A DNA stretch of 64,000 nt from Patellaria atrata CBS 101060. Taxonomy: Eukaryota. Positions within the stretch are counted from its first letter, which is position 1. Each line of letters opens with the position of its first letter. This document shows positions 44,911-55,869 of the stretch, one piece after another. Below the pieces are notes generated by a model, which was not told the origin of the DNA, searched no databases, and saw only the letters and a list, made by a program, of their open reading frames with translations. The translations under genes and the position numbers were made by a program. The DNA is taken from assembly GCA_010093705.1 (NCBI GenBank), contig MU006090.1:1701817-1765816 (forward strand). Direction: 5' to 3'.

Positions 44911-47119
44911 TTACATGCTAACCTCCACTCTACCCTCAGTACCGGGCGGTCCGCTGGCCAAGTTGGGCAGGAGGTAAGTGATATCGTCCCAGGGATGCCT
45001 GTAAAGGCCTGTCCTCAACCTCTTCTGATCCAAGAAATGGGCGATGAGACCGATACTCCTACCCAGGACGAAGAGGCCGTTGAGCACGCCCATCTTGAGG
45101 TAATCTTCCGCTTCTTCTGGGGAGAAGGCGCCGCAGTTGCGGAGGAGGTCGACGAAGGAGACGGCGATGCAGCCATCGACGTTGAGGATGAGATTGTCTT
45201 TCTTGGAAGTGGTGACCGTTTCGACGGCGATGGCGTAGTCGAGAAGCTTGGTGTTGGGGAAGTTCTTGTGGACGAATTCTTTGACAAGCTCGACACGGAG
45301 ATCGGGGTTGTTGCGGGATTTGACTCTGTGGCCGATACCAGGGACTAGGGAATAGATTAGCGAGATGAAGCATTTTCTTAGAATCGAATGGACATACTAA
45401 GCTTGTTCTCCTTCCTCATAGTGTCGACGAAGTCACGTGGGCTGAGACCCTTGTCGTATGCTCGGGTGAACTCCTCCGCGGCACCATCCAAAGCGCCACC
45501 GAATCGGGATCCGATAGTCAACAGACCGCTGACCAAAGCAGAGATTAGATCTTTGCCGGCTCTGGTAGTGATGATGGTATTCATCGCGCCAGACACGGCC
45601 GGACCGTGATCAGCCGTCAACATGAGCACCATCTCGAGGAAGCGGCTGGCATAATCTGGGAGACGTCGGCGGAACCACAGGAGGGACATAACACCTCCGA
45701 TTCCAATGTTCTCCTTGAAAACATCGGAGATGGGCATACCAGCGTACAGCAATTCTTGGCCACGGTCATCGGAGATGGTGGAAATGAAAGCTGCTGGCTT
45801 TCGGATGAGCCCGAGCTCTTGTGCCCACGAGTAATCGATGGGAATCTTGGGAACAGCAGGCTCCGGCTTTGGTTTGATAGTGCCATCTTTGAGCAGTTTC
45901 TGGTATACCTGCGCCAACATCTGCGGCATTTCTTCGAAGGTGTCAGGGACGAAGAAACCGGCTTCCTTCATCGACTTGTTCTTCGCCGCCGCAGTTTCCA
46001 ATTGTGAATTGGCGAATGAACCAGCATGGCCGAATTGTACCTCAGTCTTCAACATGGAAGCAACCGTACCAATGGCCCAAGCAACGATTGGCTTGGTGAT
46101 CTGGCCAGACTTCACGGCATCAATGACGCGGTATTCTTCAACACCACCAACTTCACCAAGCAGAAGCAGGACTTTACACTCTGGATCTGCCTGATATCGC
46201 AGCATATGGTCGATGAAGGTTGTTCCCGGGTATCTGTCACCGCCAATGGCAACACCCTCGTACACGCCGTCCGTAGTGTTTGCAATAATGTTGTTCAGCT
46301 CATTTGACATACCACCAGATTTTGAAACGTATGCTACGGAACCAGGTCGATAAAGCTTGGAGGCTACAATGTTATCCATCATACCACCGGTATTACCGAT
46401 CTTATAGCACCCGGGTTTGATACCACCGACGGTAGCAGGGCCAATAATGGTAATACCCTTCTTCTTGGCGACATGTAGGATCTCACGAGCGCGCCTCTCG
46501 GGGACACCTTCAGCAATGATGGCAATTGACTTGATTTGCGGGTATTCCATTAGCTCCATAGTCGATTGGTAGACACTACGTGACGACGCAAAGTTGACAA
46601 CGGTATCGACGTCAGAATGCTTAGCCATAGCCTTCTCGACTGATTGGTATACGGGTAATAGAGTTTCGCTCGTACCCCAGTACCTGCAAAATTGTCAATT
46701 GCCTATCCCACATTTCGAGAGTTGGCGGTGAGTGCAGTAAAGCTTACATTTTGCTGACGAATTGTCCACCAAAAGTGTAAATAATGCCCGCGACGGACGG
46801 AGTCTTGCGCTTGCAGATGAAATCGAAGTCGAGCATTCCCTGCACCGCTCTCGGTTGGAGACCACTGTCGAACGAACACTGTCAGCGGATGTTTTCTTTT
46901 TGTGCGAGTTGGTACTTTCTACTGCTGTTTGGGGAAACCCTACTAGACGAAGCATCGTGTCTTATTATGGAAGAGTGTATGTTCAGCGCGAGGGCTCAAT
47001 GGCCGACTTGGAGCTGCGAAACGGCGAATATTGTCGTTGGCAGAGAGACCACCATCCGTTGAGGTACCTAAGGTAGTGCCATTGGGCGTGCCGTTGGTTT
47101 CGGGGACTGCGGAGGGCAT
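44911..47119 (-). CDS. ACL1: ATP-citrate lyase subunit 1 (catalytic His, citrate-synthase-like C-terminus)
   Basis: [54 protein letters not shown]. Exons 47119-46944, 46864-46748, 46683-45398, 45344-44911. Confidence 0.97.
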
Positions 47120-48660
47120 TTTGGATTTTGTTGCGGGATGCGACGGTATTTAAGGAGGGATGAATTACTCTATCACGGGAAATTTTTTATCAGTTATCTT
47201 TACGGGTTTCAAAGAATTGTTGCGGTGAGAAGTCGCATGAGCCAAAAACCGAAGCTCGGAAAGGTGTAATCGCTGGTGTCCCTTGCTAGAAGAAACAGAT
47301 ATGGAAGGATTTAGGGCAAACTCACAGATGACGATGTCGTCGCAAGACAACAGGAAGAAGATTATTCGATTAAAGAAAACGCAGCAGAGTAAAGAGTAGA
47401 AAGTTGAGATTGAGGTGACGCTGGTTGACAAATTTGGGCGGTGATCAGTGTAAGGGGTTTGTGTGTCCCGTCGTATCGGTGTTGAGCTTCTCTTCTTCCT
47501 TCTTGCAGGCAAGAGGGTCACCAGCACCCTTGGTCTTCCCCAATGTTTTTTTTACCGCAACAAAGTACGTGGGGCTTGGTACGGCCGCTAAAACCGGGGT
47601 GGACTTGGTGTCTTTTGGTGGGATACTGGGGGCCCGAGGTTGGTGGGGTGGGCGACTGGGGCGTGTGCACTCGCCTGTCAAGCTTGCACCAAGTTGCCCT
47701 GGGTACTCTGCCGGTGTGTTGGGGAGCCGTGCGAGATGACGGCTTGCTTGCAGAACTCGGTGTAAATCGCGAATTTATCAATTTCCGGATGTCTAAATTG
47801 AAAGTATCCAACGATAACTGATTATATGCCGATTATCTACGCCGATAAGAGTGAAGAATGATGTTGAAAAGTCCAAGTTGTACTGAACGACGAAAAGGGC
47901 CAGAGTAGAGTTCTGTGAGACCAACCCGGCCGATTTTTGTGCCTGAATGTCCAAATTAGCGGCGTCTTGTTGATCCTCAACCACTTCAACTTTGACAAGT
48001 CACTCCGCTTTTTCGATTCAAGAGTTGAATGAGGACGACGGGACGTAACCGTGAGCAAAATAGTGAGAACCCAACCAGAATAGCAAAAGTTACTCGCTTA
48101 CCGGCATTGGACCCTCATCATTCACTTGGCTCAGGTCCAGCAGCTCACCGAAATAATCGCTACTCCACCATCAACGACCATTCCACCTTCCTCTGCTGTG
48201 GAATAATTTTCAATTACCACCTCTTCAATTGTTTATCTTCCTTACTCTTTACAGCTTCGTTCATTTACCACCTCGAAACTCGCATCCCGCTGTCTTCGGT
48301 GGTGTAGCTCAAAACTAGCACCTGCAGGTAAGATACCTCCAAAAGTCACAACACCATCTTTTCCTCGGATCGCTATACAGAGGGGCCGGGACTTTAATGA
48401 AAACCCGACGTCTTCGGAAAACATAATCTAAATCATGCCAAATGATCTATTTCCGGCAATTCAGTCGCATTCTCGATTAGGCTTCGGGTTTGATTATTTT
48501 CGTTGCGTCAACCTGCGCATTCCGATTGTCAAGTGTTTGCGTAGCGGATTCACATTCTAGCTATGAGATCCGTCATTCAGCCACCGTCAGCTTTTTAAGC
48601 AAATAGAGAAAAATCATACTCACAAGTCTTGCGCCCAGATTCTACTCTCTCCCATCGACA
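47120..48660. promoter_or_regulatory. Bidirectional ACL1/ACL2 promoter, with a probable 5'-UTR intron on each side
   Basis: Divergent ATGs 1.54 kb apart. Minus-strand intron 47170-47325 (GTGAGT..CTGAT..TAG); plus-strand intron 48328-48638 (GTAAGA..CTCAC..CAG). Confidence 0.7.
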
Positions 48661-50669
48661 ATGTCCGCCAAAGCGATACTCGAAGCAGACGGCAAGGCCA
48701 TCCTCAACTACCATCTCACACGAGCTCCTGTTATCAAGCCGACTCCTCTTCCTGTTTCCGCGACCCACAATCCTGCGCCGAAACTCGCATCTCTCAACTT
48801 TCCAGATGACCAGGATGTAAACGCAGTCCTTGACCAGGCGGAAACGACTTATCCCTGGTTGCTAGCAAGAGATGCGAAATTTGTTGCAAAGCCAGATCAA
48901 TTGATCAAACGACGTGGAAAAGCCGGTCTCCTATGTCTGAACAAATCCTGGGCAGAATGTAGAACGTGGATCGAGGGAAGAGCGAAGAAAGTGCAGCGCG
49001 TAGAGACAGTTGATGGTATCCTACGCAATTTCTTGGTCGAGCCATTCGTACCGCATCCTTCAGATACCGAGTATTATATTAATATCAACTCTGTACGAGA
49101 GGTACGTAGCTCGCCATTTCATTATTTGTCAGATCCCAAGAAAAGGAGAAGTCGTGATCAGACGAGCGATGAGAATGATTCGATCTTCTCTGGCTCGAAT
49201 CTCATAGACCGGAGATTTGCTTCGAGTTTCTGAATTTGGAGAGGAATGAGTGTAATATCTTGAAAAGTATGGATGCAGTTCCGAGTTTTGATGGCTCGGC
49301 GCCGGCTTTATGCTACGGGCGAAGGGAGATACAGCAGGCCCACATCTAACCCTTTCATAAGCTGGTTGGAAAAGTGTTTCCAGAACAATTGTACCTGCAT
49401 GTTCCTTCGCTTCTACCCGAGATCTAGTTAACCATACCGTCTACTGGGATATGAGATTCCCAGAGATCCGTTTTTTATTATTTGGAGGCTCTACTCCACC
49501 ACGCCGCTCAATGCCAAGACTCAATGCTAATATTACTCGATAGGGCGACTGGATCTTATTCACGCACGAAGGTGGTGTTGATGTCGGTGATGTCGATGAA
49601 AAGGCAGAGAAGCTCCTTGTCCCAGTCGATCTTTCACAATACCCTTCCAATGATGAGATCGCCGCTACGCTACTGAAGAAAGTACCCAAGGGCATCCACA
49701 ACGTGCTCGTCGATTTCATCTCAAGACTATACGCAGTCTTTGTTGACTGTCAATTCACGTAAGTTGTCATTGTGTGTTTGCTCTATTCCTAATCACTGAG
49801 TCTTAACTGTCCAGATATCTCGAGATCAACCCTCTTGTCGTCATTCCCAACGCCGATGCCACCTCAGCTGAAGTTCACTTTCTCGATCTTGCTGCAAAGC
49901 TTGATCAAACAGCTGAGTTCGAATGCGGCGTGAAATGGGCTATTGCCCGTAGCGCCACTGCCCTCGGCCTAGCCGTGGTTAAGCCAAGGGACGGCAAGGT
50001 CACCATCGATGCTGGACCTCCAATTGAATTCCCAGCTCCTTTCGGCCGCGAGTTAAGTAAAGAGGAAGCGTACATCGCTGAGATGGATGCTAAGACCGGT
50101 GCTTCGTTGAAGTTGACTATCCTGAACCCTAAGGGCCGCGTCTGGACCTTGGTCGCTGGTGGTGGTGCTTCCGTTGTTTACGCTGATGCTATTGCTTCTG
50201 CTGGCTTCGCTGGAGAATTAGCCAACTACGGTGAGTATTCTGGAGCTCCTAGCGAGACTCAGACCTTCCACTATGCTCGAACAGTCCTCGACCTCATGTT
50301 CCGCTCCCCGAATCACCCTGAGGGCAAGGTTCTCTTCATCGGTGGTGGTATCGCTAACTTCACCAATGTAAGTTGTGTACTTCAAATCCATTCAAATATA
50401 TATTTTAATAAATTCTCTAGGTTGCTTCTACATTCAAGGGTGTGATCCGCGCTCTCAGAGAAGTCGCTCCTCTTCTCATTGAGCATAAGGTGCAAATCTG
50501 GGTTCGTCGCGCTGGACCTAATTACCAAGAAGGTCTTAAGAATATTCAAGCTGTAGGCAAGGAACTCGAACTTGACATGCACGTCTATGGCCCAGAGATG
50601 CACGTCAGCGGGATTGTGCCCCTTGCCTTGACCGGTAAGCAATCGGATATCAAGGAGTTCAGTGGTTAG
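48661..50669 (+). CDS. ACL2: ATP-citrate lyase subunit 2 (ATP-grasp/citrate-binding)
   Basis: [55 protein letters not shown]. Exons 48661-49101, 49544-49758, 49815-50367, 50421-50669. Confidence 0.97.
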
Positions 50670-52319
50670 TCGTAGCATATATCGGAGTTTAATTTATAAT
50701 CGTTCCGCATTGGAGACGCAAAAAATCGGTTTACAATTGTTATATGGGACTTCTCCTTAAGGAATTGTTTGTAACATGTGCGTTGCGACTTTTCCGCATT
50801 CTAGAGATCTAGGGCTAACCCATACTATTGCTCATGAAGCGTAATGTTCAGAGAATTTATTGTGGTTTGCTCTTTCATTCGTGAACGATTCATTTTCATC
50901 CCAAGTCATAGTCATTCCCAGAATTCATTTCGGGTCTTGTACTCTCAGATACAAGACTTTGCAGAAGATAACCTATGCAGAGAAGAGTCTAGAGGAGCAT
51001 CATCAGTACACAGACTTAAAAGTTTGAATCTTATGACAATATTTTTATTGCTGTGTCAACATCACACTTGTTCCTCCTCCACCTTATCATTTCATCCCTC
51101 TCCTTTGTACTCTTATTCCCCTCTTCATCTGAGGTCTCCATATTTCGCGTTCTCTTCCAGAACTTCCCCTGTTTTCCGCCTATGGTGTTCTTAAAACCCT
51201 CCGATTGTGCCTCGCTTGACAAACAGGCTTGTTGATGCAGTACATTCCGGTGTTTTCACGCAAGTGGTCTTCCCGTTTGTTCTATAATTATGTGGCAGTG
51301 TACTCTCAAGTCGAGTCGTAGCATTTGGCGCATCCACGAGCTCAACCAAGTCCTTATAGCCACTGTCCATCCTTCCCCTGTTAGGACATTTATCGCCTGC
51401 TTTACGCTACCCCCTTATGCTATCTCTAACTTCTGCATACAATCCTAGACAGGATGTACAGGGAAATTTCAACTTATAGATAGTCCTTCGATATTAATCT
51501 GGATCTTGTACAATACATCCACTCCCCTACAATGCCGTTGGCTCTTCTCTACGGGGAATTCAAAAACGTACAGATGGTCATCAACGGTACAGTACGTAAT
51601 TTGACCGTATTAACTGTAGAAGACCCCCCAGTAGTGATGCAAGAAGCGTAGAGAGACTGAGAAATGAAAACATAACAGGGAAGGGATTGTACATCGAGAG
51701 TGCACCGATCGTTGCTGGATCAGTGTTTCCCTTATCGCTCTTGGACCGTGGCGACGAGGAGATAGGTTAAAGAACAAACTGAGAACTGTCACACAGATTC
51801 TCCCTGGGTGATGGACCTTCGAACAGATGGGATGAATTTACGTGCTTTACCAGGGGAATACGTATGGGAAACATATTTCCTTTACTTGACCCGCTTTTAT
51901 CCTAGGACAAACAAGGAGAACTCCCCATTTCAAGTGAAGTTCCTGCCTTATTGTGGACTCTCCTGTACCAATATTTAGGGTAAGGGATATTAAAGCAAAA
52001 CATATCAAGTTTGTCTCGGCATATCGGCTTTGTGTCCTGTGTAAGGTGCCTAAATCTTCCCATACTCATTTAAGAGGGTCGTTTGCCCTAATTGCGCGAC
52101 AGTTTTGCACGAAGTGCTCCTACCACATCGGACAACGGCGACTGCTGAATACCGTAATCACATCCCATGACCGCACTGGTAGCTTTCAAAGCCTTTTCAT
52201 CCTACCTAAGCTTCCTCTCATTTCTCATCTTCAATAGACTGCACCAGATCTTCGTATCTTGACTCGTATTCAACCTTCCAGTTTTTACTTACAAATAACG
52301 TGATTGAGAATCTCAACTT

Positions 52320-53087
52320 ATGTCACATTTACGACAGATACCACCTCTACCAGATAACAGGGTAGGAATTCTTCGGAAGTCTACACGGCCGAGTGCTGAT
52401 CATGTTTATACTAGTTCAACCCTAACCAGACCTGTCCGCACGCATATGTAAGTCCATTAACTGGTCGAAAGGTCAGTTACTTACTACTCACCATCTAAGG
52501 GTCTGGCAAGAGCCCTGGCAAACAACACTATAGGATCCAATCCCACCAATCCCACCGTACCCCCCGCGGCTTTGCTGCCTTCACCTTATCCCCCTGGAGA
52601 GCCCCAGACGTGGGTATGTTGCATCACATGCGGATTTTGGATCAATATCTCCCCCCAGGTCGTAAGTACCTCAATTCACTATCGGTAGTACCATCTCCTG
52701 ACATTTCAAGATACACTTAAGGGAGGAAATAAGAAAGTTCCAGGAGGCAATAGCCCAAACAGACCGCGAGAAGCTACGGTACTTTGAGCGTAGGTCTGAG
52801 CAGCTTTCCGGTGAGGAAGATGACCAGGGGGTCGAGACAGTACGGCTTAAGCACGAGCTTGGGGTCATGTTAGATGAGAAAGTAAGGAAGAGCCCAGTAA
52901 GTTATTGATACCCATGACAACTTTGCGCTGGCTAATGAGTCTCTAGGATCTAGAAGCGCGGTTCAGGCGCTTTCTGATGCATTTTCAAAAATGCGCGGAT
53001 CCAATATGTGTGCTCTGTCTTGATGGTGTTAAAGAGATCCTTATTCCTGGTGATCTTCCGGAGCTTGCTCCTCAAGGGCCGTCTTGA
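52320..53087 (+). CDS. Orphan six-exon gene (~172 aa) with an H-x3-C-x4-C-x2-C motif; absent from the ORF track
   Basis: Exons 52320-52361, 52415-52447, 52500-52613, 52659-52661, 52711-52896, 52947-53087. Five 45-53 nt GT-AG introns give one open frame from ATG to TGA. Confidence 0.75.
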
Positions 53088-53643
53088 TCGGTACGTTTAT
53101 GTATCGCGGCTCTTCCTCAAACCAGGTGTCTCTTTCCTACCGTAAGCTCCTCCTTTCATACTGTCTCGAACTCTATAATACAGGAGAGAGAAGAAAGTAG
53201 GAGGCGCTCGAATATCATAAAGATAAGCAAACTACTAATATGGATATGCTTATTATATCCCTACCCATCAATGTGTCTGTGACTCCATTGTACAGGTACT
53301 TCGTAAAACATACTGCGGCCTCCCAACTGCACGATTGGAGGCTACAGATGGCTGAGGGTGGTTAATACCGCGGGTAGCGGTTTCCTAGTTGTTTGTTCAG
53401 GAAGTGAATAGAGCTTCAGCAATGGGAACTTTGACAGGAGGGATGGTAAGGCGTCAGGTCATTAACATTTGAAATTTTTCTATCTAATGCATCTAAACTC
53501 AAGCTCAGATACAAAACTAAGGTTACACAGCTCCCATCTATACTCCTAACCCAAAAAGATATTTGAAAACAAAAATCCTTCGTATTTGCCCCCTTTCCCT
53601 ACCCCTTTTTCTTTACTTCTACTACCTTCCCCGTCATCCCCCT

Positions 53644-54663
53644 TCACTCCTCATAAAACACCAAACACCTAACCTCAATACTCTGCCTCCCCGGCGCGTC
53701 CTTCGGCGTCTGCGGATCCATGAAAGCCGTATGCGGCGTCCTAACCGCCACGCCCTCCCTACCCCCCGGCAACCCCTCCCCCCACGAATCAAAACACTTC
53801 AACAACATAACCTCATCGGGTCTCATATCCTTAACATAGCAAAACCGATGGGCATCGTTCGCCGCCACCGCCAACGTCTCCCCCTTAACCTCATACCCGG
53901 CCGTCGACGTCACGCTCTCCGGATCCGGCAGGATTTCCTTCCCGCGGTCGTCGTCGTCGTGCACGCTATCCGCCCGCGTCGGGTACAGCAGATCGACGGG
54001 GACGAAGTCCGACGGCGAGGTACTGCGCCAGTCTACCACGGCCAGGGGGAAGTCGCTGGCGGCGTGCGCAATCGGCCGCCACACGTTCACGATCTGGAAC
54101 CGGCGGCCGGACCGGAGCACTTCCTCTGCTTCTTGCGGGGGAAGATGCCGGCGCACGCGCGCCGCAGCCGCGCTGGGGGATTGGTCCACGTGGACTTGCT
54201 GCACGGGCTGGCGCGGGGCGTCCTTGTTGCGGCGGCGGATCGTGTGGTCGAAGATAACGACTTTGGAGATGCCGGGGTGGGAGTCCCGGAGCAGGTTTTC
54301 GATTTCGGTGTAGTAGGGTCCGCGGACGTGGGTGTCGGAGGTGAAGGAGGAGGGGTCGCTGGCGGAGGGGGAGGAGAGGAGTTGGAATCCGGCGTTTGTG
54401 GTCGTGTAGAGGTGCGGTGTGGGTCGGATGTTGGTTACGGGGCGGGTGTGCGCAGTTTGGAGGAAGGAGGTCCCGGGGCCGTCGACTTTGGACCAGGGTT
54501 TGCCGGTGTAGGATGTCGTGTCGATGTGGTGGAATGTTGCGGTTGTCATTTTGGGGGTGGTTGTGGAAAAGGGGCGGGGATGGGTATGTGTATGGCGGTG
54601 GGGATGGGGTTTTAGGGCTTTGAAGATGTTGTAGGTTACTGATCTTTTCGGTTGGACACTCAT
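53644..54663 (-). CDS. CmcJ/AsaB/GA4-desaturase-like putative Fe(II)/2-oxoglutarate oxygenase, intronless
   Basis: Family motifs FDHTIRR, VHVDQS (HxD), NVWRPI, PLAVVD, TPHTAF (distal His), RQSIEVR. Confidence 0.85.
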   Translation of the reverse strand: MSVQPKRSVTYNIFKALKPHPHRHTHTHPRPFSTTTPKMTTATFHHIDTTSYTGKPWSKVDGPGTSFLQTAHTRPVTNIRPTPHLYTTTNAGFQLLSSPSASDPSSFTSDTHVRGPYYTEIENLLRDSHPGISKVVIFDHTIRRRNKDAPRQPVQQVHVDQSPSAAAARVRRHLPPQEAEEVLRSGRRFQIVNVWRPIAHAASDFPLAVVDWRSTSPSDFVPVDLLYPTRADSVHDDDDRGKEILPDPESVTSTAGYEVKGETLAVAANDAHRFCYVKDMRPDEVMLLKCFDSWGEGLPGGREGVAVRTPHTAFMDPQTPKDAPGRQSIEVRCLVFYEE

Positions 54664-54864
54664 GGATTATTTCTTTATCGGGGTTGTGTATTTGAATGAG
54701 ATTTATGTACAATGGCTTTATATACAACGGTGTTTTGTTCAATGGCTTTGAAATACGGAAATGTTATAAATCTGAACGTTTATAATAAATCCGAGATGAC
54801 GCCATGGTTAGGTATTCCGCTCTGGATGTGATTCGGTCGAGACTCGGATCTGTAGATCTCGCGC

Positions 54865-55037
54865 CCCTTCGTCTGTATAGTGGTTAATACTCCTCGATGG
54901 TTGGCGTGCGATTCGAGCACGACTTCGATTTGGGCATTGAGCTCATCTCTTCTAATCACTCAAATTTCGTGGAGGTGTTGAATCTTGGGGTGAATCTTGG
55001 GGTGAATCTTGGAGTGACTCGATTCCTGAGAAGGGAG
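54865..55037 (+). pseudogene. tRNA-like relic (degenerate)
   Basis: CCCTTC (54865) pairs with GAAGGG (55030); D-arm/A-box-like GTAT-AGTGGTTA-ATAC at 54875-54890; B-box-like TCGATTCC at 55019-55026. The anticodon arm is not recoverable. Confidence 0.3.
54979..55017. repeat. 12-bp tandem repeat x3 (TGAATCTTGGGG)
   Basis: Copies start at 54979, 54991 and 55003. Confidence 0.9.
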
Positions 55038-55869
55038 AGGTACTGCAGTTTGACAGTTCAGGACGTTGTCAGTTCGAGGGCCAGTTAAACATCAACCCTA
55101 CTCTTTACAGTAGTCAATGGACTACAGCGATGATTATAGGTACATCCTAATAATGATAGCAGCTGTGGAGAGGATGATGTCCTTAGTATGTACGGAGAAA
55201 GGGGAGTAAGGTATGGCATTGAGGTCTAGATATACTTTTGGATATAGAACTAAACATGTCCAAACATGCCAAGCAAAACTTCTCATTCAATTTTTTCCAT
55301 CCTCAAAGGGGCAAATTTCGTTAATTGATCCCCCTTCCTTGTACAGCAGAGCCAAAACGATGCTCTGTAATTATCCATTTCAGGAAAGCTGGATTAGTTG
55401 TATACGAGAAGGAAAACAATACGGAAATATCTCCCATCTGGTCTATAGCCGTCCTCGGCTTATCGGCATGAAAAGTTCCTCCAACGACACCAGAACCAGA
55501 TTGCTTTAGGGCACGGCAATCTTTCGGTTCTGGCTGCATCTTCTTTTACTCAGAAGCATATTACTGGCCCTCAATGAACTAGCGAAGCACGCGAAAAGAT
55601 TCAAATCGTTTGGCCCCTCATCTATTATGTACTTATTCCCGGGGCTGAATACGATGAGTATGAAGCTATCAGGAGCATCTTTCCAAAAATACTAGACCCG
55701 CCACATACCTAGGTAGGTTCAATGAATATCAGTCATAAGTATTCAGTACATTACTCTCTGGTTTCCTCTTTCCGCGTAAAGATACTTCTTGCCCTATTTT
55801 CTCCCTCGGACGTCTCCTTAGATTTTGACCGGTGAGGTCATACTGTGGAAATATCAACCGGTACCTTAT

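Follow-up and report, generated by a model that had tools for sequence, protein, structure and literature searches.

The window, by which we mean the whole stretch of 64,000 nucleotides that was analysed, is free of N, and its Pfam-supported open reading frames include those of Sir2, arginase, the NatA auxiliary subunit, Mon2, VPS11, both ATP-citrate-lyase subunits and CK2 beta. The genes of the two ATP-citrate-lyase subunits are arranged head to head, with the CoA-ligase and citrate-synthase domains encoded at 45381-46694 on the minus strand and the ATP-grasp and citrate-binding domains encoded by the open reading frames at 48607-50669 on the plus strand. The gene considered here begins about 1.6 kb downstream of the plus-strand ATP-citrate-lyase gene. 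This interval of about 1.6 kb up to its start codon (50750-52300) holds no long open reading frame on either strand, and a single upstream ATG (52167) is found in the 300 nt before the start. On the other side, a convergent single-ORF gene (53647-54666, minus strand) encodes a 340-aa relative of the NvfI-type Fe(II)/2-oxoglutarate dioxygenases, with PDB matches to 7de2 (E 2.6e-23) and 7eus (E 2.7e-17) and no Pfam match at E <= 1. Genomic contigs assembled from two public runs cover positions 47500-55500 with 0 differences; these contigs are probably the window's own source and not independent of it.

Gene structure and public annotation

The original prediction, which was made from the sequence itself, had described at this locus a hidden gene for an undescribed protein, with five introns of 53, 52, 45, 49 and 50 nt and with one exon of a single codon. 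Re-translation reproduced its exons, its introns, all of which are GT..AG, and its 172-aa translation exactly. The gene is, however, not hidden: it is public as KAF2842382.1 (UniRef100_A0A9P4VUV7), hypothetical protein M501DRAFT_1013726 of Patellaria atrata CBS 101060, so that the product cannot be called undescribed either, having already been annotated as a hypothetical protein. When the exons are joined without the 3-nt exon, the resulting protein of 171 aa is identical to KAF2842382.1 at every letter, and the sole difference between the 172-aa version and the public protein is an extra Val at position 64. The public entry has neither a functional annotation nor a Pfam domain, and an annotated gene of P. 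atrata without known function is what was already known at this locus. Haridas et al. 2020 (PMC7082219) name, in the available parts of the main text and supplement, the platform used for DNA sequencing and the assembler, with no mention of a P. atrata transcriptome; the public gene model may be purely ab initio. The coordinates of the gene and of the features discussed below are presented in Table 1.

Table 1. Features of the P. atrata gene encoding KAF2842382.1 (positions in the window)
Feature	Coordinates	Strand	Description
Coding exon 1	52320..52361	+	ATG at 52320; 14 codons; residues 1-14 of KAF2842382.1
Intron 1	52362..52414	+	53 nt, phase 0; donor GTAGGA; CTGAT branch motif 15 nt before 3' end; acceptor TAG
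Coding exon 2	52415..52447	+	11 codons, FNPNQTCPHAY
Intron 2	52448..52499	+	52 nt, phase 0; donor GTAAGT; CTTAC/CTCAC branch-like motifs 16/9 nt before 3' end; acceptor AAG
Coding exon 3	52500..52613	+	38 codons, proline-rich
Intron 3, public model	52614..52710	+	97 nt, phase 0; donor GTATGT; CTGAC 9 nt before 3' end; acceptor AAG
Proposed one-codon exon GTC (Val)	52659..52661	+	CAG before, GTAAGT after; absent from public protein; unsupported
Internal consensus donor GTAAGT	52662..52667	+	With the 52710 acceptor gives a 49-nt phase-0 intron
Coding exon 4, public model	52711..52896	+	62 codons, charged, helical; in-frame alternative donor GTAAGG at 52882
Intron 4, public model	52897..52946	+	50 nt, phase 0; donor GTAAGT; CTAAT 11 nt before 3' end; acceptor TAG
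Last coding exon	52947..53087	+	46 codons plus TGA at 53085-53087; 100% identity to KAF2842382.1
H-x3-C-x4-C-x2-C motif	52980..53018	+	His137, Cys141, Cys146, Cys149 of the 171-aa protein

As shown in Table 1, all four introns of the public model have GT donors and [ACT]AG acceptors, three of the four donors conform to GTRWGT, and a CTRAY or yTnAy motif is located 9-16 nt before the 3' end of every intron. The donor of intron 1 is the weakest of the gene. An in-frame TGA (52305-52307) precedes the start codon, which belongs to an open reading frame at 52308-52451 and has a C at position -3, a point against the gene model.

The observation that all introns fall between codons held both for the model with the one-codon exon and for the four public introns, whose phase follows from the exon lengths of 42, 33, 114 and 186 nt. 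Under equal phase use, four phase-0 introns would be expected with a probability of (1/3)^4, or about 1.2%; phase 0 is in excess among fungal introns, and the chance would then be a few per cent. We consider this property a curiosity. Two further predicted properties were also borne out: the internal exons could be skipped in frame, which is a matter of arithmetic given that all their lengths are multiples of 3, and the alternative donor in exon 4 is present, its use being expected to drop the residues VRKSP.

The one-codon exon and the internal donor

The 97-nt intron 3 of the public model spans the three elements that had been proposed in its place, namely a 45-nt intron (52614-52658), the 3-nt exon and a 49-nt intron (52662-52710). 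Both flanks of the 3-nt exon were inspected for a donor, a branch site and an acceptor. The 49-nt downstream intron is complete in this respect and the 45-nt upstream intron is not: although its donor (GTATGT) is good and its CAG is preceded by a C/T-rich tract, neither CTRAY nor yTnAy was found anywhere along its 45 nt, whereas every other intron has such a motif. The proposed CAG|GTC|GTAAGT arrangement thus does exist in the sequence, but the valine is missing from the public protein, and the intron that would have to be removed upstream of it is the only one without a branch-site motif.

We also counted the occurrences of AG-NNN-GTRWGT in the window. Ten were found in the 128 kb of both strands, five per strand, and about 8 would be expected by calculation. 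Since the pattern occurs at chance frequency, its presence in one 97-nt intron is a coincidence of less than 1%. Exons of 3 nt are real but rare in fungi: for Coprinopsis cinerea, the available part of an annotation based on long reads lists 27 of them, distributed over 26 gene models (PMC12230235). A chance of less than 1% per 97 nt is nonetheless higher than the per-gene frequency of true 3-nt exons that can be read from these figures. We therefore regard the 3-nt exon as unsupported and as very unlikely to be real.

A simpler reading of the GTAAGT at 52662 is that of an alternative 5' splice site, which would share its branch point and acceptor with the donor at 52614 and would give rise to an intron of either 97 or 49 nt. 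Use of the 52662 donor extends exon 3 by 16 in-frame codons and yields an isoform of 187 aa with three more Cys and no stop. The added 48 nt are in frame and stop-free, GTAAGT is also the donor of two other introns of the same gene, a length of 49 nt is closer than 97 nt to those of the other three introns (50-53 nt), and the junction at 52662 was chosen by the unconstrained longest-frame search described below. Against this, the 187-aa isoform is absent from the public model, and with -2.1 bits in frame 0 the 45-nt segment does not stand out from non-coding DNA. On balance we consider that production of such isoforms is doubtful; it is compatible with the reading of the locus that we prefer, since the two can coexist.

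Protein architecture, orphan status and the Cys/His motif

The 171-aa protein can be divided into three parts. Residues 1-62 contain 14 of its 20 prolines, including a PPLP at residue 8; residues 63-125 contain 28 charged residues (15 acidic and 13 basic) and hold the 14-residue windows of highest amphipathicity; and residues 126-171 contain three of its four Cys. The most hydrophobic 19-residue window has a value of 1.29, and a membrane segment is for this reason not expected. The AlphaFold2 model of the whole protein, computed without an alignment, has a pLDDT of 39, with helices drawn at low confidence from residue 60 on. The model of the last exon, likewise computed without an alignment (pLDDT 54.5), shows, again at low confidence, a helix-loop-helix around the Cys/His motif, in which the His is at the end of a helix, Cys141 is in the loop, and Cys146 and Cys149 are at the beginning of the next helix. 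The ESM Atlas model has a pLDDT of 0.68 and a pTM of 0.46. Several weak matches were rejected: those to the Pfam families CaM_binding (E 0.04-0.099), DUF3856 (E 0.055) and Synaptonemal_3 (E 0.22), the only ones in Pfam, which are below the cut-offs of these families and fall on the charged helices, and those in the PDB to designed helical proteins, Gremlin-2 and Ubp6 (E 0.26 or weaker).

The family of the protein had not been recognised in the original prediction, and our searches agree: those of Pfam and of PDB sequences identified no family, and no homologue was found in protein searches or in a metagenome scan. A word-index search of 5.8 billion clusters returned only KAF2842382.1 itself when queried with the last exon against longer proteins, and with the whole protein against proteins of similar length and against longer ones. 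An exhaustive phmmer search with the 62-aa exon only, against 1.84 billion representatives, returned the protein itself and one unnamed repeat protein of 838 aa (E 1.1e-10). The latter was rejected as a homologue because it consists of tandem repeats and its score is summed over them, each repeat aligning to the 62-aa exon over 24-62 residues with 24-38% identity. It contains about ten repeats of approximately 80 residues (...FRFDDAVT...ILAYFEEH...). Of 318 pattern matches in JGI metagenome contigs none was confirmed by tblastn, so that no relatives were obtained there, and tblastn with the protein found no paralogue in the 64-kb window.

The gene is thus an orphan in the sense of having no detectable homologue outside its lineage, over the protein databases and the JGI metagenome contigs. 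Haridas et al. 2020 (PMC7082219) give, in the available parts, about 1,950 clusters of genes unique to the species for each newly sequenced Dothideomycete; 8.6% of the "unique genes" encode a Pfam domain, the average unique gene has 394 codons, and the range of 100-150 aa is called error-prone. The present gene resembles these orphans in having neither a homologue nor a Pfam domain; its product of 171 aa is shorter than their average and lies just above the error-prone range. The taxonomy column of the same supplement, in the part available, lists one further species of the Patellariales. The orphan status is ordinary, and partly reflects thin sampling.

The H-x3-C-x4-C-x2-C motif noted in the original prediction is present once in the protein, where it brings one His and three of the four Cys together within 13 residues (137-149). 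Cys and His are found at positions 3, 21, 23, 65, 111, 137, 141, 146 and 149, and as there are only four Cys, only one HCCC cluster is possible. Among the 127,996 residues of the six-frame translation of the window this motif is the only exact match, and a looser HCCC pattern is found five times. A generic pattern of four Cys/His is found 73 times, corresponding to about 0.10 per 171 aa, and for this reason the motif alone is weak evidence; we consider the cluster to be suggestive, not compelling.

The motif had been likened to the zinc module of the TAZ domains. A TAZ domain has three HCCC sites and four helices in about 90 residues. In common with TAZ (PF02135; TAZ1 and TAZ2 of CBP/p300) the protein has a set of one His and three Cys; its H-x3-C-x4-C-x2-C spacing, which we take to be that of one TAZ1 site, may lie at a helix-loop-helix junction, as the low-confidence model (pLDDT 54.5) would place it, but there is one site where three are needed. 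No zf-TAZ match was found in Pfam scans of the whole protein (E <= 10) or of the exon translations (E <= 1), and no TAZ chain in PDB sequence searches at E <= 10. With AlphaFold2 models of such low confidence (pLDDT 39 and 54.5), the comparison with known TAZ folds that had been proposed gave nothing usable: Foldseek with the last-exon model against the PDB returned no match at E <= 0.001 and only two rows of E 8 or weaker. The structure neighbours in the ESM Atlas had TM scores of at most 0.50, with no TAZ among them. The assignment to TAZ, resting as it did on one four-ligand motif, fails.

The only consistent weak signals are RING-like, not TAZ-like. All ten of the listed neighbours in ESM features are of the RING type, with similarities to the listed RING clusters of 0.82-0.91 that are a lead only (best 0.87 for the whole protein and 0.91 for residues 120-171), and among PDB sequences the last exon aligns best, at E = 1.2, with the first knuckle of RNF4. 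It could be proposed from this that the C-terminus originated in a RING-type E3 domain, or imitates one, of which the first C-x2-C knuckle has been kept and the other ligands have been lost. The C-x2-C followed by L-D-G indeed resembles the first knuckle in the clan of PF13639, PF00097 and PF13445. RING domains have eight ligands, however, whereas four are found here in the last 60 residues, with no Cys or His after Cys149; the second half is missing, and Pfam gave no RING match at E <= 10. The ESM scores are within the range of shuffled proteins, and the shared features are few (113 and 133 of 256). No plausible downstream exon adds ligands; those obtained by extending the longest-frame search to 53650 were low-quality extensions with weak donors, and were rejected. 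RING membership thus fails too, with four ligands and no profile match, and we consider a RING remnant improbable.

Coding potential and interpretation of the locus

Three lines of evidence bear on whether the locus is a gene at all. Within 52320-53087 there are four GTRWGT donors on the plus strand, a number that 478 of the 63,231 sliding 768-nt spans of the window reach and none exceeds. The longest spliced frame from ATG to stop was then sought by dynamic programming over 52200-53200, allowing up to 5 introns of 40-120 nt with GTRNG donors and [ACT]AG acceptors. It amounted to 209 codons on the plus strand and to 65 on the minus strand, whereas 60 dinucleotide shuffles gave a mean of 75.5 codons, with at least 171 codons in one of the 60. 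For codon usage, 33 long open reading frames were scanned against Pfam, 20 of which had a match at E <= 1e-5; one was dropped because its kinase score was below the Pfam cut-off, and the log-odds model was trained on the remaining 19 (17,799 nt). In frame 0 the five public exons reach a total of +5.2 bits, or +0.030 bit per codon, and the five remaining frames fall to between -33 and -77 bits. Their score is higher than that of 98.8% of 410 putative intergenic chunks, from which stops were removed for scoring, and corresponds to only the 18th percentile among 62 chunks of real coding sequence, scored by leave-one-out. The codon usage of the 171-aa gene is at the weak end of real genes; donor density, shuffles and codon usage, taken together, make a real spliced gene likely.

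Other stop-free paths through the same DNA exist. For example, if intron 1 and the 45-nt segment are both kept and the 52448 donor is spliced to the AAG at 52510 as acceptor, a frame of 201 codons with an unchanged C-terminus is obtained, which illustrates the in-frame flexibility of the locus.

Our preferred reading, to which we give a probability of roughly 0.6, is that the locus is a real, annotated orphan protein-coding gene of P. atrata CBS 101060, with five exons, four short phase-0 introns and no micro-exon. It has to be weighed against the view that this is intergenic DNA or a non-coding transcript, in which the 171-codon frame arose because software and reader alike chose introns that remove stops. 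The absence of homologues from the protein searches and the metagenome scan, the small codon score per codon, which 1.2% of the intergenic chunks exceed, the one shuffle that also attained at least 171 codons, and the possibility of other long frames, such as that of 201 codons, are all in keeping with that view. However, four consensus donors on one strand, accompanied by branch motifs and acceptors at the spacing of short introns, are independent of the reading frame, and such a view leaves aside the far lower scores of the five other frames and the limit of 65 codons on the opposite strand. The locus moreover fills the interval of about 3 kb that separates two genes. We therefore judge a spurious gene to be unlikely.

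The model in its original form, in which introns of 45 and 49 nt flank the codon GTC, the 172-aa product carries a zinc module of the TAZ type and isoforms arise by exon skipping, draws on the existing CAG|GTC|GTAAGT, on the documented 3-nt exons of C. cinerea and on the motif spacing. The missing Val, the single intron without a branch motif, the single HCCC site without a zf-TAZ match and the ESM features that favour RING over TAZ weigh against it, and we hold it to be highly improbable as a whole. A still bolder version, in which a young, lineage-specific, free-standing HCCC zinc hairpin, equivalent to one third of a TAZ domain or to the first RING knuckle, is combined with tandem-site isoforms that include a genuine 3-nt exon in an ascomycete, appears to us extremely improbable.

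Under the preferred reading of a five-exon orphan gene, the product would be a small lineage-restricted protein of an ordinary kind, possibly with a single zinc knuckle. It would have no signal peptide and no membrane segment, and would consist of a proline-rich N-terminal third that is probably disordered, a charged helical middle and a C-terminal helix-loop-helix. As a working hypothesis by analogy with a single TAZ site, His137, Cys141, Cys146 and Cys149 may chelate one structural zinc ion and thereby staple the last two helices together. If this staple holds, we would expect the protein to serve inside the cell as a small interaction module and not as an enzyme.

For the present the gene is of little consequence: it is in GenBank as a hypothetical protein, and species-unique small genes number thousands per Dothideomycete genome according to the available parts of Haridas et al. 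2020 (PMC7082219). If the 3-nt exon or the tandem-donor isoforms were true, the gene would provide a compact example of a micro-exon or of an alternative 5' splice site in a filamentous ascomycete, and if zinc binding were true, it would provide a minimal HCCC module of independent origin.

A minor observation concerns the neighbouring dioxygenase gene, which forms a sharp compositional island, with a G+C content of 0.59-0.67 compared with about 0.42-0.48 in its flanks. Two short segments in the 5' part of this gene (53656-53692 and 53788-53814) also match other contigs of the same public runs, with 3 mismatches, which suggests that a short His/Pro/Thr-rich low-complexity element is repeated elsewhere in the genome.
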